From Thermoproteaceae archaeon (GTDB taxonomy: Archaea > Thermoproteota > Thermoprotei > Thermoproteales > Thermoproteaceae), in NCBI GenBank assembly GCA_020833025.1, contig JAJHRB010000022.1:1-22591 (forward strand): a stretch of 22,591 nt of DNA, given 5' to 3'. The notes beneath the pieces are model-generated. The model saw nothing but the letters and a program-made list of their open reading frames with translations, ran no database searches and was not told where the DNA came from. Of this stretch, positions 3,001-21,411 are shown piece after piece. The position numbers were made by a program, and so were the translations under genes. Positions within the stretch are counted from its first letter, which is position 1; each line of letters opens with the position of its first letter.

Positions 3001-6000
3001 GCCGGCAGGAGGCAGTTACTCAGAGCACTGCGGGATGTCGACAAGGCGCTCGAGCTCCTTAGCTCATTGCGCGACCTCGTAACATTCGCCGAGAGGCCAG
3101 CGCTCAATGCCGACTTGGCGCGACTGCTGCGGGCGGCCAGGCTGCTCGGGCTCGAGCAGACTGCGAGATTTCTGAGGGCCCTTGCTGAGGCTAGAGCTGC
3201 GCTCTGGCGCCGGGGCGCTCCGCCGCGCGGTCACCGGCAGTGGGAGCCCCTGGCGCTGGCACGCCGCGCGCGCCTCAGGGCGCTGATACGGGCGCCACTC
3301 TACAGCTATGTAATTGACGCGCTGGGGGAGTACGTCCTTAAATGCGTGTACACCAGGTGGCACGCAATTTTCGCCGAGTACGGGAAGTACATAGCCACCG
3401 CGTTCGACCACGCGAGGAGCAGCCCCGTGCGCGCGGCGGCGCCTGTATCGCTCAGGGGCTTCAGCTACGTCTCGGCAGTCATGAGGTGGCTCGGCGGTTT
3501 GAGCGACGACGCAGTCGCCGGAGGGCTGAGGGCGTACTACAGCGCCGACGGGAGGCCATTCAGGGAGCTCGCGAGGTTTACGCTGCTCGGCGCCAGGGCC
3601 GTGCTATTCGAGAGAGCTGCCGACGCGATTAAACGCGCGCTGGGAGGCGAGAAGGCGGAGCTGACTGCCGCCATTTTAAGGGCAAGGGCAGCGCTTGAGG
3701 AGCTCAAGCTCGCCCAGCTGTACCTAAACAGCGTCAGGAGGCGCGCCGAGGAGCTGCTCCGGGCGGCTGAGCTGATCTCCGACGAGGAGAAGGCGGCTAG
3801 ACTCAGGGGGGAGGCCGAGAGCGCCATCTCCAGGGCCGAGCGCGTTGTCGGGAGGATAACGGGCAGCGCGAGGGCGCGGTACGCGGAGAGCCTCCGCGCT
3901 GCAATGAGACATCTCTCCGACAGCCCGCTCACGGCGAGAATCGGGCACGCGCTCTACGGGCTGACCGCCCGCGCGTTTGTGGGAGACCCCGAGGAGGTTG
4001 CGACGAGAATGATCAAGTTCCTCGACGCGAGACGCCTTGCAGCGTGGGTAGACAAGCTCGTCCTTGATAAGGAGCTGGGAGAGCTGGCGGTGAGAATTGT
4101 AGAGGCCGAGAGACTGCTCCGCGGGCTCGAGAGGGCGCTCGGCAAGGGCGCGCAGGCGGCGGACTACGCCCCGGCGGTCGGCGCGTTGTCGTGCCTGGAG
4201 CGCTGCGAGCTCCCGGAGGTTAAAACAAGCGCTGTGGAGAGGGCCGTTGTCAGCGCGGTTAGGGATATTATCAAGCACTACGAGGGCGTGCTCCGCGAGC
4301 GCGCCATCAGGGCCGCGCCGTATTTGGCCATCGCCAGAGGGGATGCCAGATTTGCGAGCGGGCCGTTGGCAAGAGCCGCCGAGGCCCTGAGGCTTGCCGC
4401 GCGCGCCGGGAGCACGCCTGAGGCCTCCAGCGCGCTGCGGAGGGCAAGAGATGCGCTTAGGAAGCTCGGGATAGAGGTCGAGGGGGAGAGCCCGGCCGGT
4501 ATTGTCGGCGCTGTGGAGAGGGCCTTCAGGCAGGCATATGAAGACTACGTCGCCGCGGTGAGGGAGTTCGCGCACGCCATTAATGCACTCGCGGGATTTT
4601 CGTCTGAAGCCGCATTGGAGCTATACAGAGCGGCGAGGGCGTGCAGCCGCGACGCTGTCGGCAGGCTCGTCGCCGCGAGGCTCGCGGAGACTGCCAAGCG
4701 CGCGCTGCGCGAGTACGCGCCGCTGTGGAGGAGAGGCCTCGAAGGGCGCTGGGGCTCCCTGCCGCGCGAGATCAAAGAGCTCGTGGCCAGAAAGGAGCGG
4801 GAGGCAGTCGCAGCGCTGGCGCGCCGCGTGCTTAAGAGCGCTGGCATTCACGTGACTGCAGGCGATCTCGAGGGAGTGGCGGAGGCGCTCAGGAAGGCGC
4901 TCACGCCTGGCCCCCTCGACCCGCTCGCGGACAGAGTGCGAGCCCGGGTCGAGGACTTCACTGCGGCAGTCGAGCGCTTTGCGCGCGGAGAGGCAGGTGC
5001 GAGTGAGGTGAGAGGCGCTATTAAAGCGCTATTGAGAGAGCTCGGGAGCGCTATAGCAAGGCACGCTACCGCGGCGCGCCTTGAAGATGTGGTAAGACAG
5101 GCGCGCAGAGCTCTGCGAGCGTCTCTGAGGCGCGCCGCGGTAAGACTGGAGGGGAGGGTGCTAGCCATGGCATTCCTTCTGCACGTCGCGGAGATGCCCA
5201 GAGAGCTTGCCGCGTCGTTTGGCGATCTGCTCGCGAGAGGCAGAAATGCATTAAGGCCGTGGGTTGCGTACGAGACCGAGAGCTGGCGTCTCGCAAGACT
5301 GGCAGGCTCGCTTGGTATGAGCGTCATCCGCGCGAGAGCGCCCAGCAGGTTCGATGAGCGGGGCGCTCCCCTGGGCTCCTGGAAGTTTGTATACATCATA
5401 GTGCCGAGAGGCTTTGACTTGCCGGCTGTGGAGCGCGAGCTGCTGCGGCACGTCTACTCACAGCCCGGCGGCATTGCTCACATAGAGCCGGGGCACTGGC
5501 CAGTGCCGGAGTCTTTCATCTGGCACGTGCTGAAGGGCCTGAACCCCGTCAGGACCAGGACGGGCATAATAGTGGTCGCCCCGCAGGAGCGCCCTCTCAC
5601 GAGGGCGCTCTCTGAGTTCGAGCAGAGGCTGAGGGCGCTTGATAGCAGCGGGGCGCGCGAGATAGTAATGCGGCTGCTGGAGCTCGGGGAGCGCGCGCCC
5701 GACACCGCTCTCCGCATTTTATGGCACGAGGACCCCTCAGGTGCCCTGAGTGCCCTTCGCTTTGTCTCCGGCAGATACGGCGAGCCCCTGGAGCGCGCGT
5801 GGGAGAGAAGGGATGAGGTATTCCTCACGTGGCTCGCGTTTAGACTTGCCGGCGTGTTTGAGCGATTTCTCGCCAGCGGCGCTGGCAGAGGTCTCGGCAG
5901 GGAAGAGCTGCTGAGGGTTGCAGACCTCAGCTGGCTGCCGAACAAGCTCGCGGGTCCCTTCGCCCTGAGGCTTCTGGGAGACTCCGGGGGCCTGCGGACG

Positions 6001-11077: not shown

Positions 11078-11084
11078 TTATTAA
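11078..11084 (+). promoter_or_regulatory. TATA box (TTATTAA) of alaS
   Basis: -28 to -22 from ATG 11106. The same heptamer precedes ino1. Confidence 0.6.
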
Positions 11085-11105
11085 TCCTCATGCCCCAGCC
11101 GCGAC

Positions 11106-13880
11106 ATGGAGGGGCGCCCCCCGCCGGGCCGGCCACCCGGAGTTCCAGATCCCACGGGAGCGGCCGGGGCGGGAGGGGGGTATGCAGCGCTGACATCTAG
11201 GCTGTTCCGGGAGCTGGGTTTCGTGCGGAAACAGTGCCCGCGCTGCAAGTCATACTTCTGGACTCTCAATCGCGAGCAGGCCTACTGCGGGGATCAGCCG
11301 TGCGTGCCGTACGGCTTTATAAATAACCCGCCGGCAAGCAGGCTGCCGGAATCCGTCTCGCAGCTGAGGGAGAGATTCCTCCGCTTCTTCGAGGCGCGCG
11401 GCCACGCGAGAGTAAAGCGGTATCCTGTCGTTGCCCGGTGGCGTGATGATGTATATCTGGTCGGGGCCTCCATTTACGATTTCCAGCCGTGGGTTACCAG
11501 CGGGGCCGTGCCGCCGCCTGCCAACCCGCTAGTCATATCGCAGCCGTCTATCAGACTGACCGACGTGGACAAGGTCGGGCGGAGCGGGCGCCACTTGACA
11601 GGGTTTGAGATGATGGCCCATCACGCATTCAATTACCCTGAGAAGTATGTGTACTGGATAGATGAGACTGTGGAGTATGCGTACGAGTTCTTTGCAAAAG
11701 AGCTCGGCATAGCCCCTGAGGAGATAACATTCAAGGAGTCGGTGTGGGAGGGAGGCGGGAATGCAGGCGAGTGCTTTGAGGTGCTGATAAGGGGCCTTGA
11801 GGTAGCCACCTTGGTTTTCATGCACTACGAGGTGAGGGACGGCAGGTACGTGGAGCTCCCGCTCAGGATAGTGGACACAGGCTACGGTCTCGAGAGGATT
11901 TACTGGTTGCTAAGAGGCTCGCCGACAATCTACGACGCGGTCTTCGGCCAGTTCATAGACAGAGTCAGGATAGCTCTTGGTGTTGAGCGGCCGCCTGAGG
12001 ATGTGCTGGCGAGAGCAGCAGTGCACTTCGGCCGGCTGGATCCCGAGCTGATCGGGCTGAGCAAGGCCTACGAGCTCGTCGCGCAGAGCATAGGCGCCGA
12101 TCCGAGGTGGTTTGAGGGCGTGATGAGAGCGCAAGAGGCGCTTTACGTGCTCGCCGACCACGGGAGGTCAGTGGCGTGGATGATAGCGGACGGAGTGATA
12201 CCATCAAACGCCGGAGCCGGCTATCTCGCGCGGCTGCTGATAAGGCGCATGTTGCGGTACCTGAGATTTACAGGGGCGGAGGTCCCGCTGGCCGAGATAA
12301 TGAGCGTGTGCGTGAGGGAGCTGAGGCGCGAGTATCCAGAGGTAGGCGACGCGGAGAGCCTGATATTGGAGCTTGTAGAGATGGAGGAGCGGAAGTTTAG
12401 GGAGGTATTAAAGTCGGCGCCAGCTGCGGTGAAGAGAGCGCTTGAGGAGGCCAGACGCAGCGGGAGGGAGGCCCTGAGCGTTGACGACATAGTAGTGCTG
12501 TACGACAGTCACGGAATTCCGCCTGAGACTGCCGCCGAGGTGGCAAGACGGCTGGGAGTCGAGGTTAGAATCCCCGATGATTTCTACTCAAGACTCGCCG
12601 CGAGGCACGGCGCGAGAGGGAGGCGCCGCGAGAGGCAAGTAGTTGAGATGTCGGCGCTGGCCGAACTCCCAAGGACGCGCGAGTTGTTTTACGAGGACCC
12701 GTACATGAAATGCTTCAAAGCCAGCGTGCTGCGAGTGATTGGCGGCAAGTACGTCGTTCTTGACCAGACGGCATTTTATCCCGAGGGCGGGGGCCAGCCT
12801 GCCGACACGGGCGTGCTCAGACATGCCGGCGGCATTGCTAGGGTAGTTGACGTCCGGCGAGTCGGGCACGTGATAGTGCACGCCGTCGAGGGAAACGTGC
12901 CGCAGGAGGGCGCCGATATTATCGGCGAGATAGACTGGGAGAGAAGGTATGGCCTCATGAAGATGCACACAGGGACGCACATACTACTGCAGAGCATCAG
13001 GCGCGTGCTCGGCAGCCATATATGGCAGGCAGGCGCGCAGAAGGACCTGCCATTCAGCCGTCTCGACGTGACGCACTACAAGATGCCCTCAGCCGGGGAG
13101 ATTGCAAAAATAGAGAGGCTAGCGAACGAGATCGTTCAGGCAAATTTGCCCGTGCGTGTTAAGGTCATGCTGAGAAGTGAGGCTGAGTCAAAATACGGCT
13201 TCGTGCTTTATCAGGGCGGCGCCGCCCCGTCCAGAGATCTGCGAGTCGTCCAGATAGGAGACGAGGGGGGCGTGTTTGACGTGCAGGCGTGCGGCGGCAC
13301 GCACGTGAGGCTCACTGGAGAGATTGGCGTGATAAAAATAGTGAGAGTCGAGCGAATCGCAGAGGGGGCCGTTCGCTTCGTTCTCTCAACCGGGCTGCAC
13401 GTGCTTGAGTACGTGCAGAGGCTTGAGCAGCAGGCTGCCGAGGCGGCGAGTGTGGCGGGGGGCTCAAGGGATGAGCTCGTCGAGGCCGTTAAGAGACTGC
13501 TCCACAGGGCTGGGGAATGGGAGAGAAGGGCCCGGCGCTACGTAGAGCTATACGCATCGCTGCTCGCGGGGAGCCTCCGCACGGAGCGCGCCGGTAATTA
13601 CGAGCTTGCCGCGGTTGAGCTTGACGATGACGAGCTGGCAAGAAAGCTAGCGCTGGCGGCCACGAGCCGCAACAAGAGCCTCGTGCTTGTCGTGACAAGC
13701 GGGAAGCGCGTGAGTATATACACGGGCGGCCTCGACGTGGAGCACATAATGAGTGCGCTCAGAGAGGCAGGATTTAAGGGCGGCGGCTCCAAGACATTCG
13801 CGCAGGGAGTTTACGAGGGCAGCGTGGAGAGCTTGCTAGGGGCCGTCAAAGCAGCACTAACGCGCGCGGGGCAATTGTGA
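11106..13880 (+). CDS. alaS: Alanyl-tRNA synthetase (archaeal type); start position uncertain
   Basis: CxxC...FWT...CGD.PC, [34 protein letters not shown], [24 protein letters not shown], editing-domain HTGTH and ACGGTH, C-terminal GGGS. Confidence 0.97.
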
Positions 13881-18753: not shown

Positions 18754-19290
18754 ATGGCAGCAGCGCTTGAGCGCATCAAGCCCAGGGCGCCGGACGACTT
18801 GTATGCAGTCATAGAGATACCGAAGGGCAGCAATATCAAGTACGAGCTTGACGAGGAGACGGGCGCCATAATGGTGGACAGGATACTCTACACGGCAATG
18901 TTCTATCCGTTTAACTACGGAGTAATTCCCGGGACTCTCGAGGAGGACGGCGACCCCCTCGACGTGCTCATAATCTCGCACGAGACACTCGCGCCCGGCA
19001 CCGCAATCAGGGTCAGGCCGGTGGGCGCGCTCGTGACGGAAGACGAGGAGGGACTGGACAGAAAGCTAATAGCGGTGCCCCACGAGAAGATAGACCCGAG
19101 ATTTGCAAATATAAAAGACATCAAGGACGTGCCAGAGGCCATTCTGAACCAGATTAAGCACTTCTTCGAGCACTACAAGGAGCTCGAGCCAGGGAAGTGG
19201 GTCAAGGTCAAGGAGTGGTGGAACAGAGAAAAGGCAATTGAGCTTGTAAAGAAGGCAATTGAAATGTACGAGAAGGAGAAGAAAAAGTAG
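18754..19290 (+). CDS. ppa: Family I inorganic pyrophosphatase
   Basis: EIPKGS.IKYE, DR.LY....[41 protein letters not shown]. Confidence 0.97.
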
Positions 19291-19401
19291 CCGGCGCGCT
19301 GGGCGTTAGCGCGAGCTCAAAACAGTATATTTTTGCGGATTCTGCGCCAAGAATCAAAAACTTCCAGCTAGAGACTTTAACAAGCCCGGCAACAGTGCAG
19401 C

Positions 19402-20112
19402 GTGGTGGAACTAATAGTGCCGCGGCCTATCTGCAGCGTCATTAAGTGCGACGACGTGAATAACATTGACTTAAAAAGCGCGCTGAAAGAACTAGAGCGG
19501 GAGCACGACGTGCATGAAATACTGCCCGGCATATACGCGTACAAGTACGACTTTAACCGCATCTCGCCATCCCTAATAAATGATTACAGCTTCTGCCCGC
19601 GCCTTCTCTGGATCCAGCAGAGGCTCGGCCTTAAGCTGCTGACGGAGAGACTGCTCGTGGCATTAGTGCGCGGCCGCATCCTCCACCAGCGTTACGAGCG
19701 AGCCGTAACAGTTTACGACAACGTCATCGCGGAATACAGAGTTGAAATCGGCAATCTCGTCGGCGTGATCGACGTAGTCGTGAGGCGCGGGCGCGAGTAC
19801 GTGCCCGTCGAGCTTAAAACAGGCGCGGCGGGCAGGGATGCCCATAGGAGGCAGTTGCAAGCATACATTCAGCTACTCGGCGCGTCTCGCGGCTATCTAG
19901 TCTACAGAGACAGAGTAGAAATAGTGAGGGAGGAGAGGAGCGCTCTTGCCCTCCTCGCCGAAATTGAGCGGGTAGTGAGAATGGAGAGTCCGCCGGACGT
20001 CACGTGCCGCGGATGTGCATTTATCAGCGTGTGCCGGCAACTCTCTGGCACGCGCCTCTCTCCAGCTCCCCGCCGCACTCTAGGGCCCAGCGGGGAGCGC
20101 CCCTCCATGTGA
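19402..20112 (+). CDS. cas4: Solo Cas4-family PD-(D/E)xK nuclease with Fe-S cysteines
   Basis: ISPS.I.DY.FCPR..W (Cys1), G.ILH, GVID, PVELKTG, H..QL..Y and C-terminal CxxC.....C. The N-terminus ELIVPRPIC resembles, from memory, the characterised Pyrobaculum calidifontis Cas4 Pcal_0546. Start may be 19405. Confidence 0.88.
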   Translation: MVELIVPRPICSVIKCDDVNNIDLKSALKELEREHDVHEILPGIYAYKYDFNRISPSLINDYSFCPRLLWIQQRLGLKLLTERLLVALVRGRILHQRYERAVTVYDNVIAEYRVEIGNLVGVIDVVVRRGREYVPVELKTGAAGRDAHRRQLQAYIQLLGASRGYLVYRDRVEIVREERSALALLAEIERVVRMESPPDVTCRGCAFISVCRQLSGTRLSPAPRRTLGPSGERPSM

Positions 20113-20329
20113 CAGGCTGGGCGGCGGAATTGACAAGCGCTCGGGGCGGCAAAAACCGGCGAGGTTTCAGTACCGCTGCCGGAGCGCAACCTCGCGGCGG
20201 CGCGAGCCCGCCAGCGGTCCCGGCGTGCGGCTCCTGCGAGTAAGAAAGGTGCGGACGCCCGGGCTTCCGGGTCCCGGAGGGCAGCGAGAGTTGAAGGGGG
20301 CACGCCGTCGGTAGCCGGCGTTAAACAGC

Positions 20330-20336
20330 TTATTAA
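20330..20336 (+). promoter_or_regulatory. TATA box (TTATTAA) of the ino1-padR operon
   Basis: -26 to -20 from GTG 20356. Confidence 0.6.
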
Positions 20337-20355
20337 CAGACCTGTTTAGATTGAC

Positions 20356-21411
20356 GTGACAATCAGGGTGGGTTTAGTGGGCGTCGGAAATTGTGCGTCA
20401 GCGCTTGTGCAGAGCGTGGAAATGCACAAGCACCAACCGAAGCTCGACCCGCCAGCAATCCTCGCACGCGTCAAGAATTACACTCCGCGCGATATAGTGT
20501 TCACTTCGGCATTTGATATAGACGCCAGGAAAGTTGACCTCGACCTCTCCGAGGCGATATTCCAGCCGCCGAATAACGCCGCGGTCATATTTAAGCCGCC
20601 GAGGCTCGGTGCGGTGGTACGCCCTGGACCTGTGTTAGACGGCGTGCCGGGAGGCGGGCTGGTATCAAAAATAGTGGAGGGCACGGTCGACGACGTCGTC
20701 CGCGAGCTTCACTCGACAAATACTGAGATTCTTGTGAACTACCTGCCCACGGGCGCGAGAAAGGCAGCCGAGGCCTACGCGGAGGCAGCGCTCAGAGCCG
20801 GCGTTGCATTTGTAAACGCAATGCCGGCGCCCGTAACATCGAGCGCGCACTGGCAGAAGAGGTTTGCAGAGCGCGGCGTGCCGCTTCTCGGTGATGACAC
20901 CCAGAACCAAATAGGCGCGACAGTGCTACACAAATCGCTCATAAGACTGCTGGCACTCAGGGGGGTGAGGGTAAGGCGCACGTATCAAATAAACATTGGC
21001 GGGACGCCCGACTTCCTGAACCTCATGTACAGGCACGACGACAAGGTAGCGTCAAAGACAGCAGCGGTGAAGACGATGGCGGAGGGGCAGGAGTTCGACG
21101 CCTATATTGCACCGGTTGCTTATATCAGGTTCCTCGGGGATAGAAAGATCGCACACATGCTAATAGAGGCCGAGATATTCGGCGGCCTCCCTGTTAGAAT
21201 TGAGGTAACGCTGGAGGTTCACGATGCGTGGAATAGTGTTGCCGTCGTGGTGGATGCCGTCAGGCTCGCGAAACTGGCGCTAGACAGAGGGATCGGCGGC
21301 CCCCTCCTGAGCGCGTCTGCGTGGTGCTTTAAGAACCCGCCCGTGCACATGAGCCCCGAGGAAGCCTACAGGGCCGTTCTTGAGTTCATCGACGGCAAGC
21401 GCGACAGATGA
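20356..21411 (+). CDS. ino1: myo-inositol-1-phosphate synthase
   Basis: GVGNCASALVQ Rossmann motif, AFDID..KV..DL.EAI, LVNYLP.G, F.N..P, GDD...Q.GAT..H, Q.N.GG..DF.N, SKT.AV, GD.K, D..NS, ...FK.PP. Confidence 0.96.
   Translation: MTIRVGLVGVGNCASALVQSVEMHKHQPKLDPPAILARVKNYTPRDIVFTSAFDIDARKVDLDLSEAIFQPPNNAAVIFKPPRLGAVVRPGPVLDGVPGGGLVSKIVEGTVDDVVRELHSTNTEILVNYLPTGARKAAEAYAEAALRAGVAFVNAMPAPVTSSAHWQKRFAERGVPLLGDDTQNQIGATVLHKSLIRLLALRGVRVRRTYQINIGGTPDFLNLMYRHDDKVASKTAAVKTMAEGQEFDAYIAPVAYIRFLGDRKIAHMLIEAEIFGGLPVRIEVTLEVHDAWNSVAVVVDAVRLAKLALDRGIGGPLLSASAWCFKNPPVHMSPEEAYRAVLEFIDGKRDR

Follow-up and report, generated by a model that had tools for sequence, protein, structure and literature searches.

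In a hot-spring archaeon of the family Thermoproteaceae, the GC-rich, hairpin-rich spacer between a solo cas4-like gene and ino1 is probably for the most part worn debris of TnpB-type transposons, a scar of an ordinary kind. The spacer lies in a window of 22,591 nt (the whole stretch of DNA analysed; contig JAJHRB010000022.1 of assembly GCA_020833025.1), between a cas4-like open reading frame (ORF) at 19402-20112 (+ strand, 236 amino acids; Pfam Cas_Cas4, E 4e-14) and the ino1 ORF, for myo-inositol-1-phosphate synthase, at 20356-21411 (+ strand; Pfam Inos-1-P_synth, E 2e-28). The best explanation, and one we believe is probably correct, is that the 283 bp from about 20046 to 20330 would be a composite scar of TnpB-type insertion sequences (IS1341-like; IS200/IS605 superfamily) which has replaced a gene for an HdrD-like iron-sulfur oxidoreductase. 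The scar would hold two worn right-end modules, one on the + strand with its tail (20288-20300) facing ino1, and an inverted copy whose tail abuts cas4. A scar of this composition explains the G+C content of the spacer (0.70-0.74, against 0.626 for the genome), part of its stems and a C-terminal extension of Cas4. Positions below are those of the window, and C10, C21, C61, C89 and similar names denote contigs of the genome to which the window belongs (G000).

Both pieces belong to a family of modules present in about 25-33 copies in this genome. We described the family by a covariance model, R1, made from 17 own-genome copies with the window and its two closest look-alikes left out. The structure of the model (P1, H1 and H2) was set by hand, since the RNAalifold/MAFFT consensus of 20 own-genome copies was poor and misaligned the 5' strand of P1. 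In the resulting alignment of the 17 copies 84.9% of cells were paired, against 43-61% when the partners were slid; covariation was weak, with 3 of 20 pairs changing on both sides, as these copies are young paralogues. R1 returned 33 genome matches at E ≤ 1, and an nhmmer profile of 12 tnpB-linked copies returned 17 at E ≤ 0.01. The 13-nt tail GAGTTGAAGGGGG, with at most one mismatch, occurs at 7 genomic sites, 6 of them behind the same CCGGAG-type hairpin. The copies diverge within a few bases past the G-run of this tail, giving a sharp 3' boundary with copy-specific sequence beyond it.

The family is linked to tnpB-like genes. On C98, C115, C21 and C89 the module comes after an ORF with a CxxC...CxxC zinc ribbon at its end, and Pfam PF07282 (the TNB domain of TnpB/Cas12f) has 11 matches in the genome, 10 of them over the cut-off. 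The complete 427-amino-acid protein of C89 matches PF07282 with E 7e-10 (39.3 bits, cut-off 26.3) and NCBIfam NF040570 (RNA-guided endonuclease TnpB family) with E 6e-12; the latter match spans profile positions 171-388 of 389, its 45.6 bits lying below the curated cut-off of 100. Since phmmer gave no match for it among PDB sequences and the NCBIfam score fell below the cut-off, we regard it as a divergent TnpB-like protein. Its gene occupies L031:1330-2613 (-), which is C89:55546-56826, and the zinc ribbon is followed by the motif RD-VPAMWA. Among the 33 module matches, 12 lie no more than 600 nt downstream of a tnpB-like coding sequence on the same strand, and these 12 take in 7 of the 10 best scorers. 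Three of these 12 (C10, C50 and C61:15519) keep only N- and C-terminal pieces of tnpB and are internally deleted elements. These derivatives, apparently non-autonomous, span C10:3570-3960, C50:14630-15088 and C61:15200-15593, and the copy at C54:10755-10917 is near-identical to that of C50 over the module, with a single weak mid-gene tnpB piece upstream. The remaining 21 matches lack such similarity; 3 of them are too near a contig end (less than 200 nt) to be judged, and 18, both pieces of the window among them, have at least 1 kb of contig upstream.

The same arrangement is found in three other genomes of the genus. At all 8 loci examined there, a TnpB homologue (49-53% identity) is followed by a related module that ends in GAGTAGAAAGGGGG or a near variant. 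In their fold the long-range helix P1 (9 bp) is invariant and encloses the variable hairpin H1 and a short hairpin, and the terminal G-run is paired with a C-run located about 150 nt further 5'. Both partners vary at 4 of the 35 pairs, 3 of these in H1. We infer from this position and fold that the module represents the right end, with the presumed omega-RNA scaffold, of an IS1341-like element, and that intact modules are probably transcribed as omega RNA in this organism.

When R1 was run over the window with filters off, the best of 42 matches was 20217-20305 on the + strand (27.4 bits, E 2.9e-4) and the second was 20051-20135 on the - strand (19.9 bits, E 0.011); the third, the first outside the spacer, had 12.0 bits. 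Genome-wide, the + copy (as 20187-20305) reached 30.3 bits (E 0.005, rank 24 of 33). In the R1 alignment the H2 hairpin of this copy (20264-20280) has 6 of 6 pairs and is followed by the 3' strand of P1 (20280-20287) and by the tail (20288-20300), which is identical to the consensus at 13 of 13 positions. BLAST matched 20254-20291 (block 2) and the tail behind it to C10:3911-3955 (82%, E 6e-4) and C98:1472-1507 (83%, E 7e-3). The nhmmer and R1 matches of the window stop at 20300-20305, exactly at the tail of the family. Together, the covariance model and BLAST support 20217-20305 as a sequence and structure homologue, in decayed form, of the tnpB-linked module. No tnpB-like coding similarity was found within 600 nt upstream of it on the same strand (tblastn, E ≤ 1), the upstream gene being cas4, so this piece is a relic or an orphan and not part of an element. 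It scores 27-30 bits, about a third of the 65-94 bits of tnpB-linked copies, its scaffold is incomplete relative to theirs with H1 not preserved, and it is probably no longer functional.

The second piece, 20051-20135 on the - strand, was not recognised in the preliminary description of this DNA. Compared with the complete C89 element it gives two colinear BLAST matches with about 140 nt absent between them. The first is a 25-nt box of the tnpB 3' region (92%, element positions 1486-1510), which forms the 5' box of the piece at 20085-20109, and the second is 15 nt of the P1 3' strand and tail start (100%, element positions 1655-1669) at 20066-20080. These matches argue, less strongly than those of the + copy, for a decayed and internally deleted right-end/omega-RNA-type relic with its tail toward cas4. 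The end of cas4 coincides with this piece. Residues 2-214 of Cas4 align with residues 1-214 of the 215 of a relative's Cas4 (56% identity), the tblastn homology of the gene ends at 20043, and its conserved part ends near 20043-20046. Since homology stops at residue 214, the last 22 codons (20047-20112) are new; the 22 extra C-terminal residues are read out of the antisense strand of the inverted relic, and the ancestral stop codon is gone. The preliminary description had seen no credible ORF in this stretch. This holds for the two mechanical ORFs crossing the spacer, 20004-20243 (+, 79 amino acids) and 19902-20303 (-, 133 amino acids), neither of which has a Pfam match, but not for cas4 itself, which runs on to 20112. 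We also observed a second tail-outward pair in the genome, at C61:5143-5948, composed of a minus module with a tnpB fragment (5204-5563) and a plus module at 5834-5948; the + copy of the window has its closest relative in the 3' part of this plus module.

Comparison with relatives delimits the insert and reveals a missing gene. DNA homology is regained at 20330, leaving 26 nt up to the start of ino1, and the lineage-specific insert comprises 20047-20329 (283 bp). The conserved stretch includes the AT-rich box CTTATTAA (20330-20337), which is probably the ino1 promoter; as the insert lies upstream of it, it would not be an ino1 leader. At 8 of 8 same-genus loci the gene order is a GTPase-like ORF, cas4 (214-237 amino acids), an ORF of 586-643 amino acids, and ino1. 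Two of the eight large ORFs were run through Pfam and both are HdrD-like, with two CCG domains and a 4Fe-4S dicluster domain. A close homologue of this protein was not found in the window's genome, where the best tblastn matches, at 19-23% identity, lie elsewhere. We considered that the spacer could be a remnant of the lost gene and rejected it: in a tblastn search of 20000-20400 with HdrD-like, Cas4 and GTPase-like proteins of relatives the best E was 0.25. A DNA search of 17 same-genus genomes revealed no homologue of the spacer and only two short matches, one to the conserved region upstream of ino1 and the other of 21-25 nt in G003, inside an apparent coding stretch without significant tnpB similarity. 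With no homologue in 17 genomes, the element is not a conserved companion of cas4.

In the history that we propose, two elements would have inserted on either side of, or within, the HdrD-like gene, and a later deletion would have removed that gene with the bodies of both elements. The same deletion may have taken the stop codon of cas4, by which Cas4 would have gained its 22 residues, and left the ino1 promoter intact. Upstream of cas4, relatives (loci L069-L076) have the GTPase-like ORF and the window has (18754-19401) an inorganic pyrophosphatase gene (18754-19290, Pfam); with different neighbours there too, the locus is rearranged both upstream and downstream of cas4. A further species of the genus, which carries dozens of tnpB copies, has a 421-amino-acid tnpB-like gene between the HdrD-like gene and ino1 (positions 2387-3652 of L075, G007:C1:1553200-1559900), in the same intergenic region as the scar of the window.

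A different reading had been put forward for this spacer in the preliminary description, that of a new structured, possibly pseudoknotted non-coding RNA functionally tied to the solo Cas4, possibly through co-transcription and binding. All of the pairings it listed can indeed be read in the sequence. They comprise an 8-bp stem of GCGAGGTT (20159-20166) and AACCTCGC (20188-20195), a pseudoknot-type pairing of the loop ACCGCTG (20172-20178) with CAGCGGT (20212-20218), a GNRA-type hairpin GGC-GCGA-GCC (20199-20208), a one-bulge stem of CCCGGCGT (20219-20226) and ACGCCCGGG (20255-20263), the hairpin CTTCCGG-GTC-CCGGAGG (20264-20280), a stem ACGCCG...CGGCGT (20302-20321), and GGCAGCG (20280-20286) as alternative partner of the loop. 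The element also lies directly 3' of cas4 on the same strand. Stability beyond that of shuffled sequence was not found, however. We folded 20065-20340 and compared its minimum free energy (MFE) with those of 200 dinucleotide shuffles per strand. The + strand gave -130.8 kcal/mol against -131.5 +/- 5.6 for the shuffles (z +0.13; 108 of 200 at least as stable), and the - strand gave z -0.35 (68 of 200 at least as stable). Perfectly complementary 7-mer pairs in 20065-20321 number 13, against 7.1 +/- 3.6 in 1000 dinucleotide shuffles, 7.3% of which reach 13, and complementary 8-mer pairs number 4, against 2.3 expected (24% of shuffles reach 4); 7-mer pairs in such number should yield pseudoknot-like topologies by chance alone. 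The stems of the spacer are partly surviving scaffold hairpins (H2 and a possible long-range pairing) and partly what is expected of any sequence of 72% G+C. Rfam 15 gave no match in the whole window at the gathering score and none in 19950-20420 at E ≤ 10, and according to ARAGORN the window contains neither a tRNA nor a tmRNA. Nor was conservation found: no orthologous element exists in the 17 same-genus genomes, and behind the orthologous cas4 of the 8 relatives' loci the element is absent, the 586-643-amino-acid gene separating cas4 from ino1. The one sister copy in the genome stands behind argG and not behind a cas gene, and in a related population the change G20194A breaks a pair of the 8-bp stem, with no listed change at its partner, 20160. 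We therefore find the proposed RNA tied to Cas4 unsupported and consider it extremely improbable.

The part of the spacer that holds the 8-bp stem requires separate treatment. BLAST of the spacer against its own genome identified a single sister locus, C61:17066-17240, directly behind an argininosuccinate-synthase-like ORF (argG). Two blocks are shared. Block 1 (20142-20198, + strand), which holds the hairpin 20159-20195, matches C61:17066-17120 at 91% over 57 nt, with a 39-nt core at 97.4% (E 3e-13), and block 2 matches at 90-91% (91% over 34 nt). By global alignment the centre between them (20199-20257), containing the hairpin 20199-20208 and the bulged stem 20219-20226/20255-20263, aligns poorly, with 67 nt in the window against 93 nt in the sister, and the sister lacks the tail. 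In block 1 the loop CGCTGCC (20174-20180) can form 7 bp with GGCAGCG (20280-20286), and both copies retain this pairing. In relatives the genes on either side of the sister copy are not adjacent, so that both copies lie at synteny breakpoints. A coding reading was rejected, as no TnpB-like or other recognisable peptide emerged when the spacer and its sister were translated in three frames. An attachment (att) site, a tRNA fragment and a C/D-box RNA were likewise dropped as identities of block 1, given its two genomic copies, the negative ARAGORN result and the lack of box motifs by eye. Among public genome contigs a 19-mer of block 1 had 4 matches, all in unrelated bacteria; a 24-mer had none in metagenome contigs, and the 30 matches of an 18-mer are chance matches, their flanks agreeing at 7-20 of 50 positions.

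Variation at the locus was followed in contigs from three DNA runs of two other studies, which sample related hot-spring populations; among the sequencing runs listed as carrying the locus none was of RNA. Metagenome contigs break at block 1, and the 33-mer 20158-20190 is found at a depth about double that of its flanks, as two genomic copies would give; contigs in which the blocks are joined by 93 nt, and not by 67, correspond to the sister locus. Run X4 has 9-10 changes in 20047-20355, of which two are deletions of 1 nt, and 3 changes in the roughly 990 nt of coding sequence at its flanks; the corresponding numbers for run X2 are 4 and 5. Among the differences listed for run X5 (about 4.5% divergent) none falls in 20266-20300, a stretch too short to weigh. 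We see no sign of constraint on the spacer in these populations.

The uneven conservation of the two copies leaves room for a mini-element, for an orphan guide RNA still in use, or for gene conversion. A mini-element would be a two-copy, non-autonomous derivative resembling palindrome-associated transposable elements (PATEs) or miniature inverted-repeat transposable elements (MITEs), with block 1 as one end, block 2 and the tail as the other and the centre free to vary, which reached the cas4-ino1 and argG loci by mobilisation or duplication. Its attractions are the well-kept ends around a hardly alignable centre, the position of both copies at breakpoints relative to the genus and the presence in the genome of internally deleted derivatives (C10, C50, C61:15519). 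We nevertheless judge it unlikely, because none of the left ends and tnpB 5' regions at 41 loci is similar to block 1, just two copies exist of which the second has no tail, no common flanking target motif is evident, and no transposase to move it was found.

A working stand-alone guide RNA of omega type would be a product of cas4 read-through transcription that TnpB-like proteins from other loci take up in trans, with the 16-20 nt past 20300-20305 as its guide. Omega RNAs that stand alone and work in trans have been described (PMC10691335). In the window copy the tail and H2 are intact, and the 7-bp pairing kept in both copies resembles the P1/pseudoknot pairings of the family and those of ISDra2 (PMC10097598). 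These features are outweighed, in our opinion, by a score far below that of tnpB-linked copies (27-30 against 65-94 bits), the loss of H1, the tailless sister, the absence on sequence inspection of an AT-rich promoter box from 20113-20160, and a spacer that changes faster than its flanks in related populations; we rate such a guide RNA as distinctly unlikely. A better candidate for a stand-alone omega-type RNA is C54:18676-18758 (-), which scores 70 bits, in the intact range, and has 8.5 kb of contig upstream with no tnpB-like similarity within 600 nt. A further proposal is that the + unit (about 20142-20305) and its argG sister (C61:17066-17240) form a lineage-specific, domesticated two-gene family of small RNAs derived from omega RNA. 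In it a new and strongly kept 5' hairpin block would have been grafted on the old 3' scaffold (H2 and the 7-bp long-range pairing), with read-through expression from the upstream gene and use either in trans by divergent TnpB-like proteins or independently of them. We regard this proposal as highly doubtful.

Several observations count against the composite scar of TnpB-type elements. In the R1 alignment the H1 helix of the + relic has only 2 of 5 standard pairs and P1 has 7 of 9, and because of these failing pairs demonstrable homology covers only about 45-90 nt. The nhmmer profile finds 20218-20300 with just E 1.1 genome-wide, the E-values of R1 are rough since its calibration was shortened, and the inverted piece is not significant in the genome-wide R1 search (E 0.72, rank 32 of 33). 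No Y1 transposase (PF01797) was detected in the genome, the assembly of which is 93.9% complete, and in its absence the elements would be of the tnpB-only, IS1341-like type. Between the copies blocks 1 and 2 are far better kept than the centre, which is not what simple neutral decay would produce. Block 1 itself has no match in the 41 tnpB loci with their upstream flanks (144 kb; at E ≤ 1 only chance matches of 12-17 nt), and so about a fifth of the spacer, with its main hairpin, is left unexplained by the scar. The preliminary description had also mentioned an omega-RNA-like relic; this suggestion is borne out by BLAST and R1 for 20217-20305 and more weakly for 20051-20135, and does not extend to the hairpin block 20142-20198.

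These weaknesses raise the question of whether the spacer has any transposon ancestry, or whether its similarity to the family is a product of chance among low-complexity G/C runs. The nhmmer value of 1.1 would suit chance, as would a genome of 62.6% G+C rich in CCGG and GGGG runs and the many R1 matches of 6-12 bits in GC-rich parts of the window. Independent searches agree, however, those outward by BLAST with E 6e-4 and 7e-3 and those inward by the model with E 3e-4 in the window and 5e-3 in the genome; moreover the match ends exactly at the tail of the family, and a second, colinear two-piece match lies alongside. We consider a chance origin very unlikely, and retain the composite scar.

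Two further similarities to sequences of this family were noted. At 11105-11129 the window shares 25 nt, without a mismatch, with the tnpB 3' region of the C89, C40 and C39 copies; this box is preceded by an AT-rich box and followed by a G-run (11083-11190). It lies at the very start of the alaS ORF (11106-13880), the Pfam domain of which begins at residue 87, and is probably another insertion sequence relic that gives the ORF a false or new N-terminus. The genome also has clustered regularly interspaced short palindromic repeat (CRISPR) arrays at C89:65936-66558, C47:26214-30236 and C103:875-1216, the repeats of which end in GGGTTGAAAG or GGATTGAAAG. The octamer GTTGAAAG is common to these repeat ends and to the tail of the tnpB-linked module (GAGTTGAAAGGGGG), which may be coincidence.

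The value of the analysis is mostly that of a correction, as a GC-rich, stem-rich spacer beside a cas gene is easily mistaken for a regulatory or Cas-bound RNA. Here it marks the loss of an HdrD-like gene in an archaeon that carries a divergent tnpB-like family whose presumed guide-RNA modules outnumber its genes. The modules decay in recognisable steps, from complete through internally deleted to solo tail, and their relics shape gene ends, as in the 22-residue extension of Cas4, and occupy synteny breakpoints. The well-kept 5' block common to two loci is the sole point that retains some interest.

Among known systems, PATE- and MITE-like derivatives of IS200/IS605 elements differ from the window sequence in that no left end of the parent element was found in block 1 when 41 loci were compared. 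Solo right ends and stand-alone omega RNAs are among the closest, the window piece being an orphan module alongside complete elements of the same genome. It differs from the stand-alone omega RNAs described (PMC10691335), which are intact and mobilised, in being degenerate, and differs further in its fusion to block 1 and in the second relic with which it forms a tail-outward pair. A close likeness also exists with the omega RNA and right end of TnpB elements of the IS200/IS605 superfamily, tnpB-only IS1341 type. ISDra2 is reportedly the solved example (PMC8612924, PMC10097598). The local TnpB-like protein is very divergent; the window piece departs from the pattern in having no tnpB-like similarity within 600 nt upstream and in the loss of one scaffold helix. 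According to PMC10097598, the omega RNA overlaps the 3' end of tnpB and the right end, and its guide-adjacent nucleotides pair with a 5'-proximal segment. The module of our genome is likewise structured and non-coding, lies directly behind a tnpB-like gene and has a sharp 3' boundary, and the segment adjacent to that boundary pairs long-range upstream. An archaeal precedent for RNAs from the 3' end of tnpB exists in the sense overlapping transcripts (sotRNAs) of IS1341-type tnpB genes, reported for Halobacterium and a few other archaea in PMC4615843.

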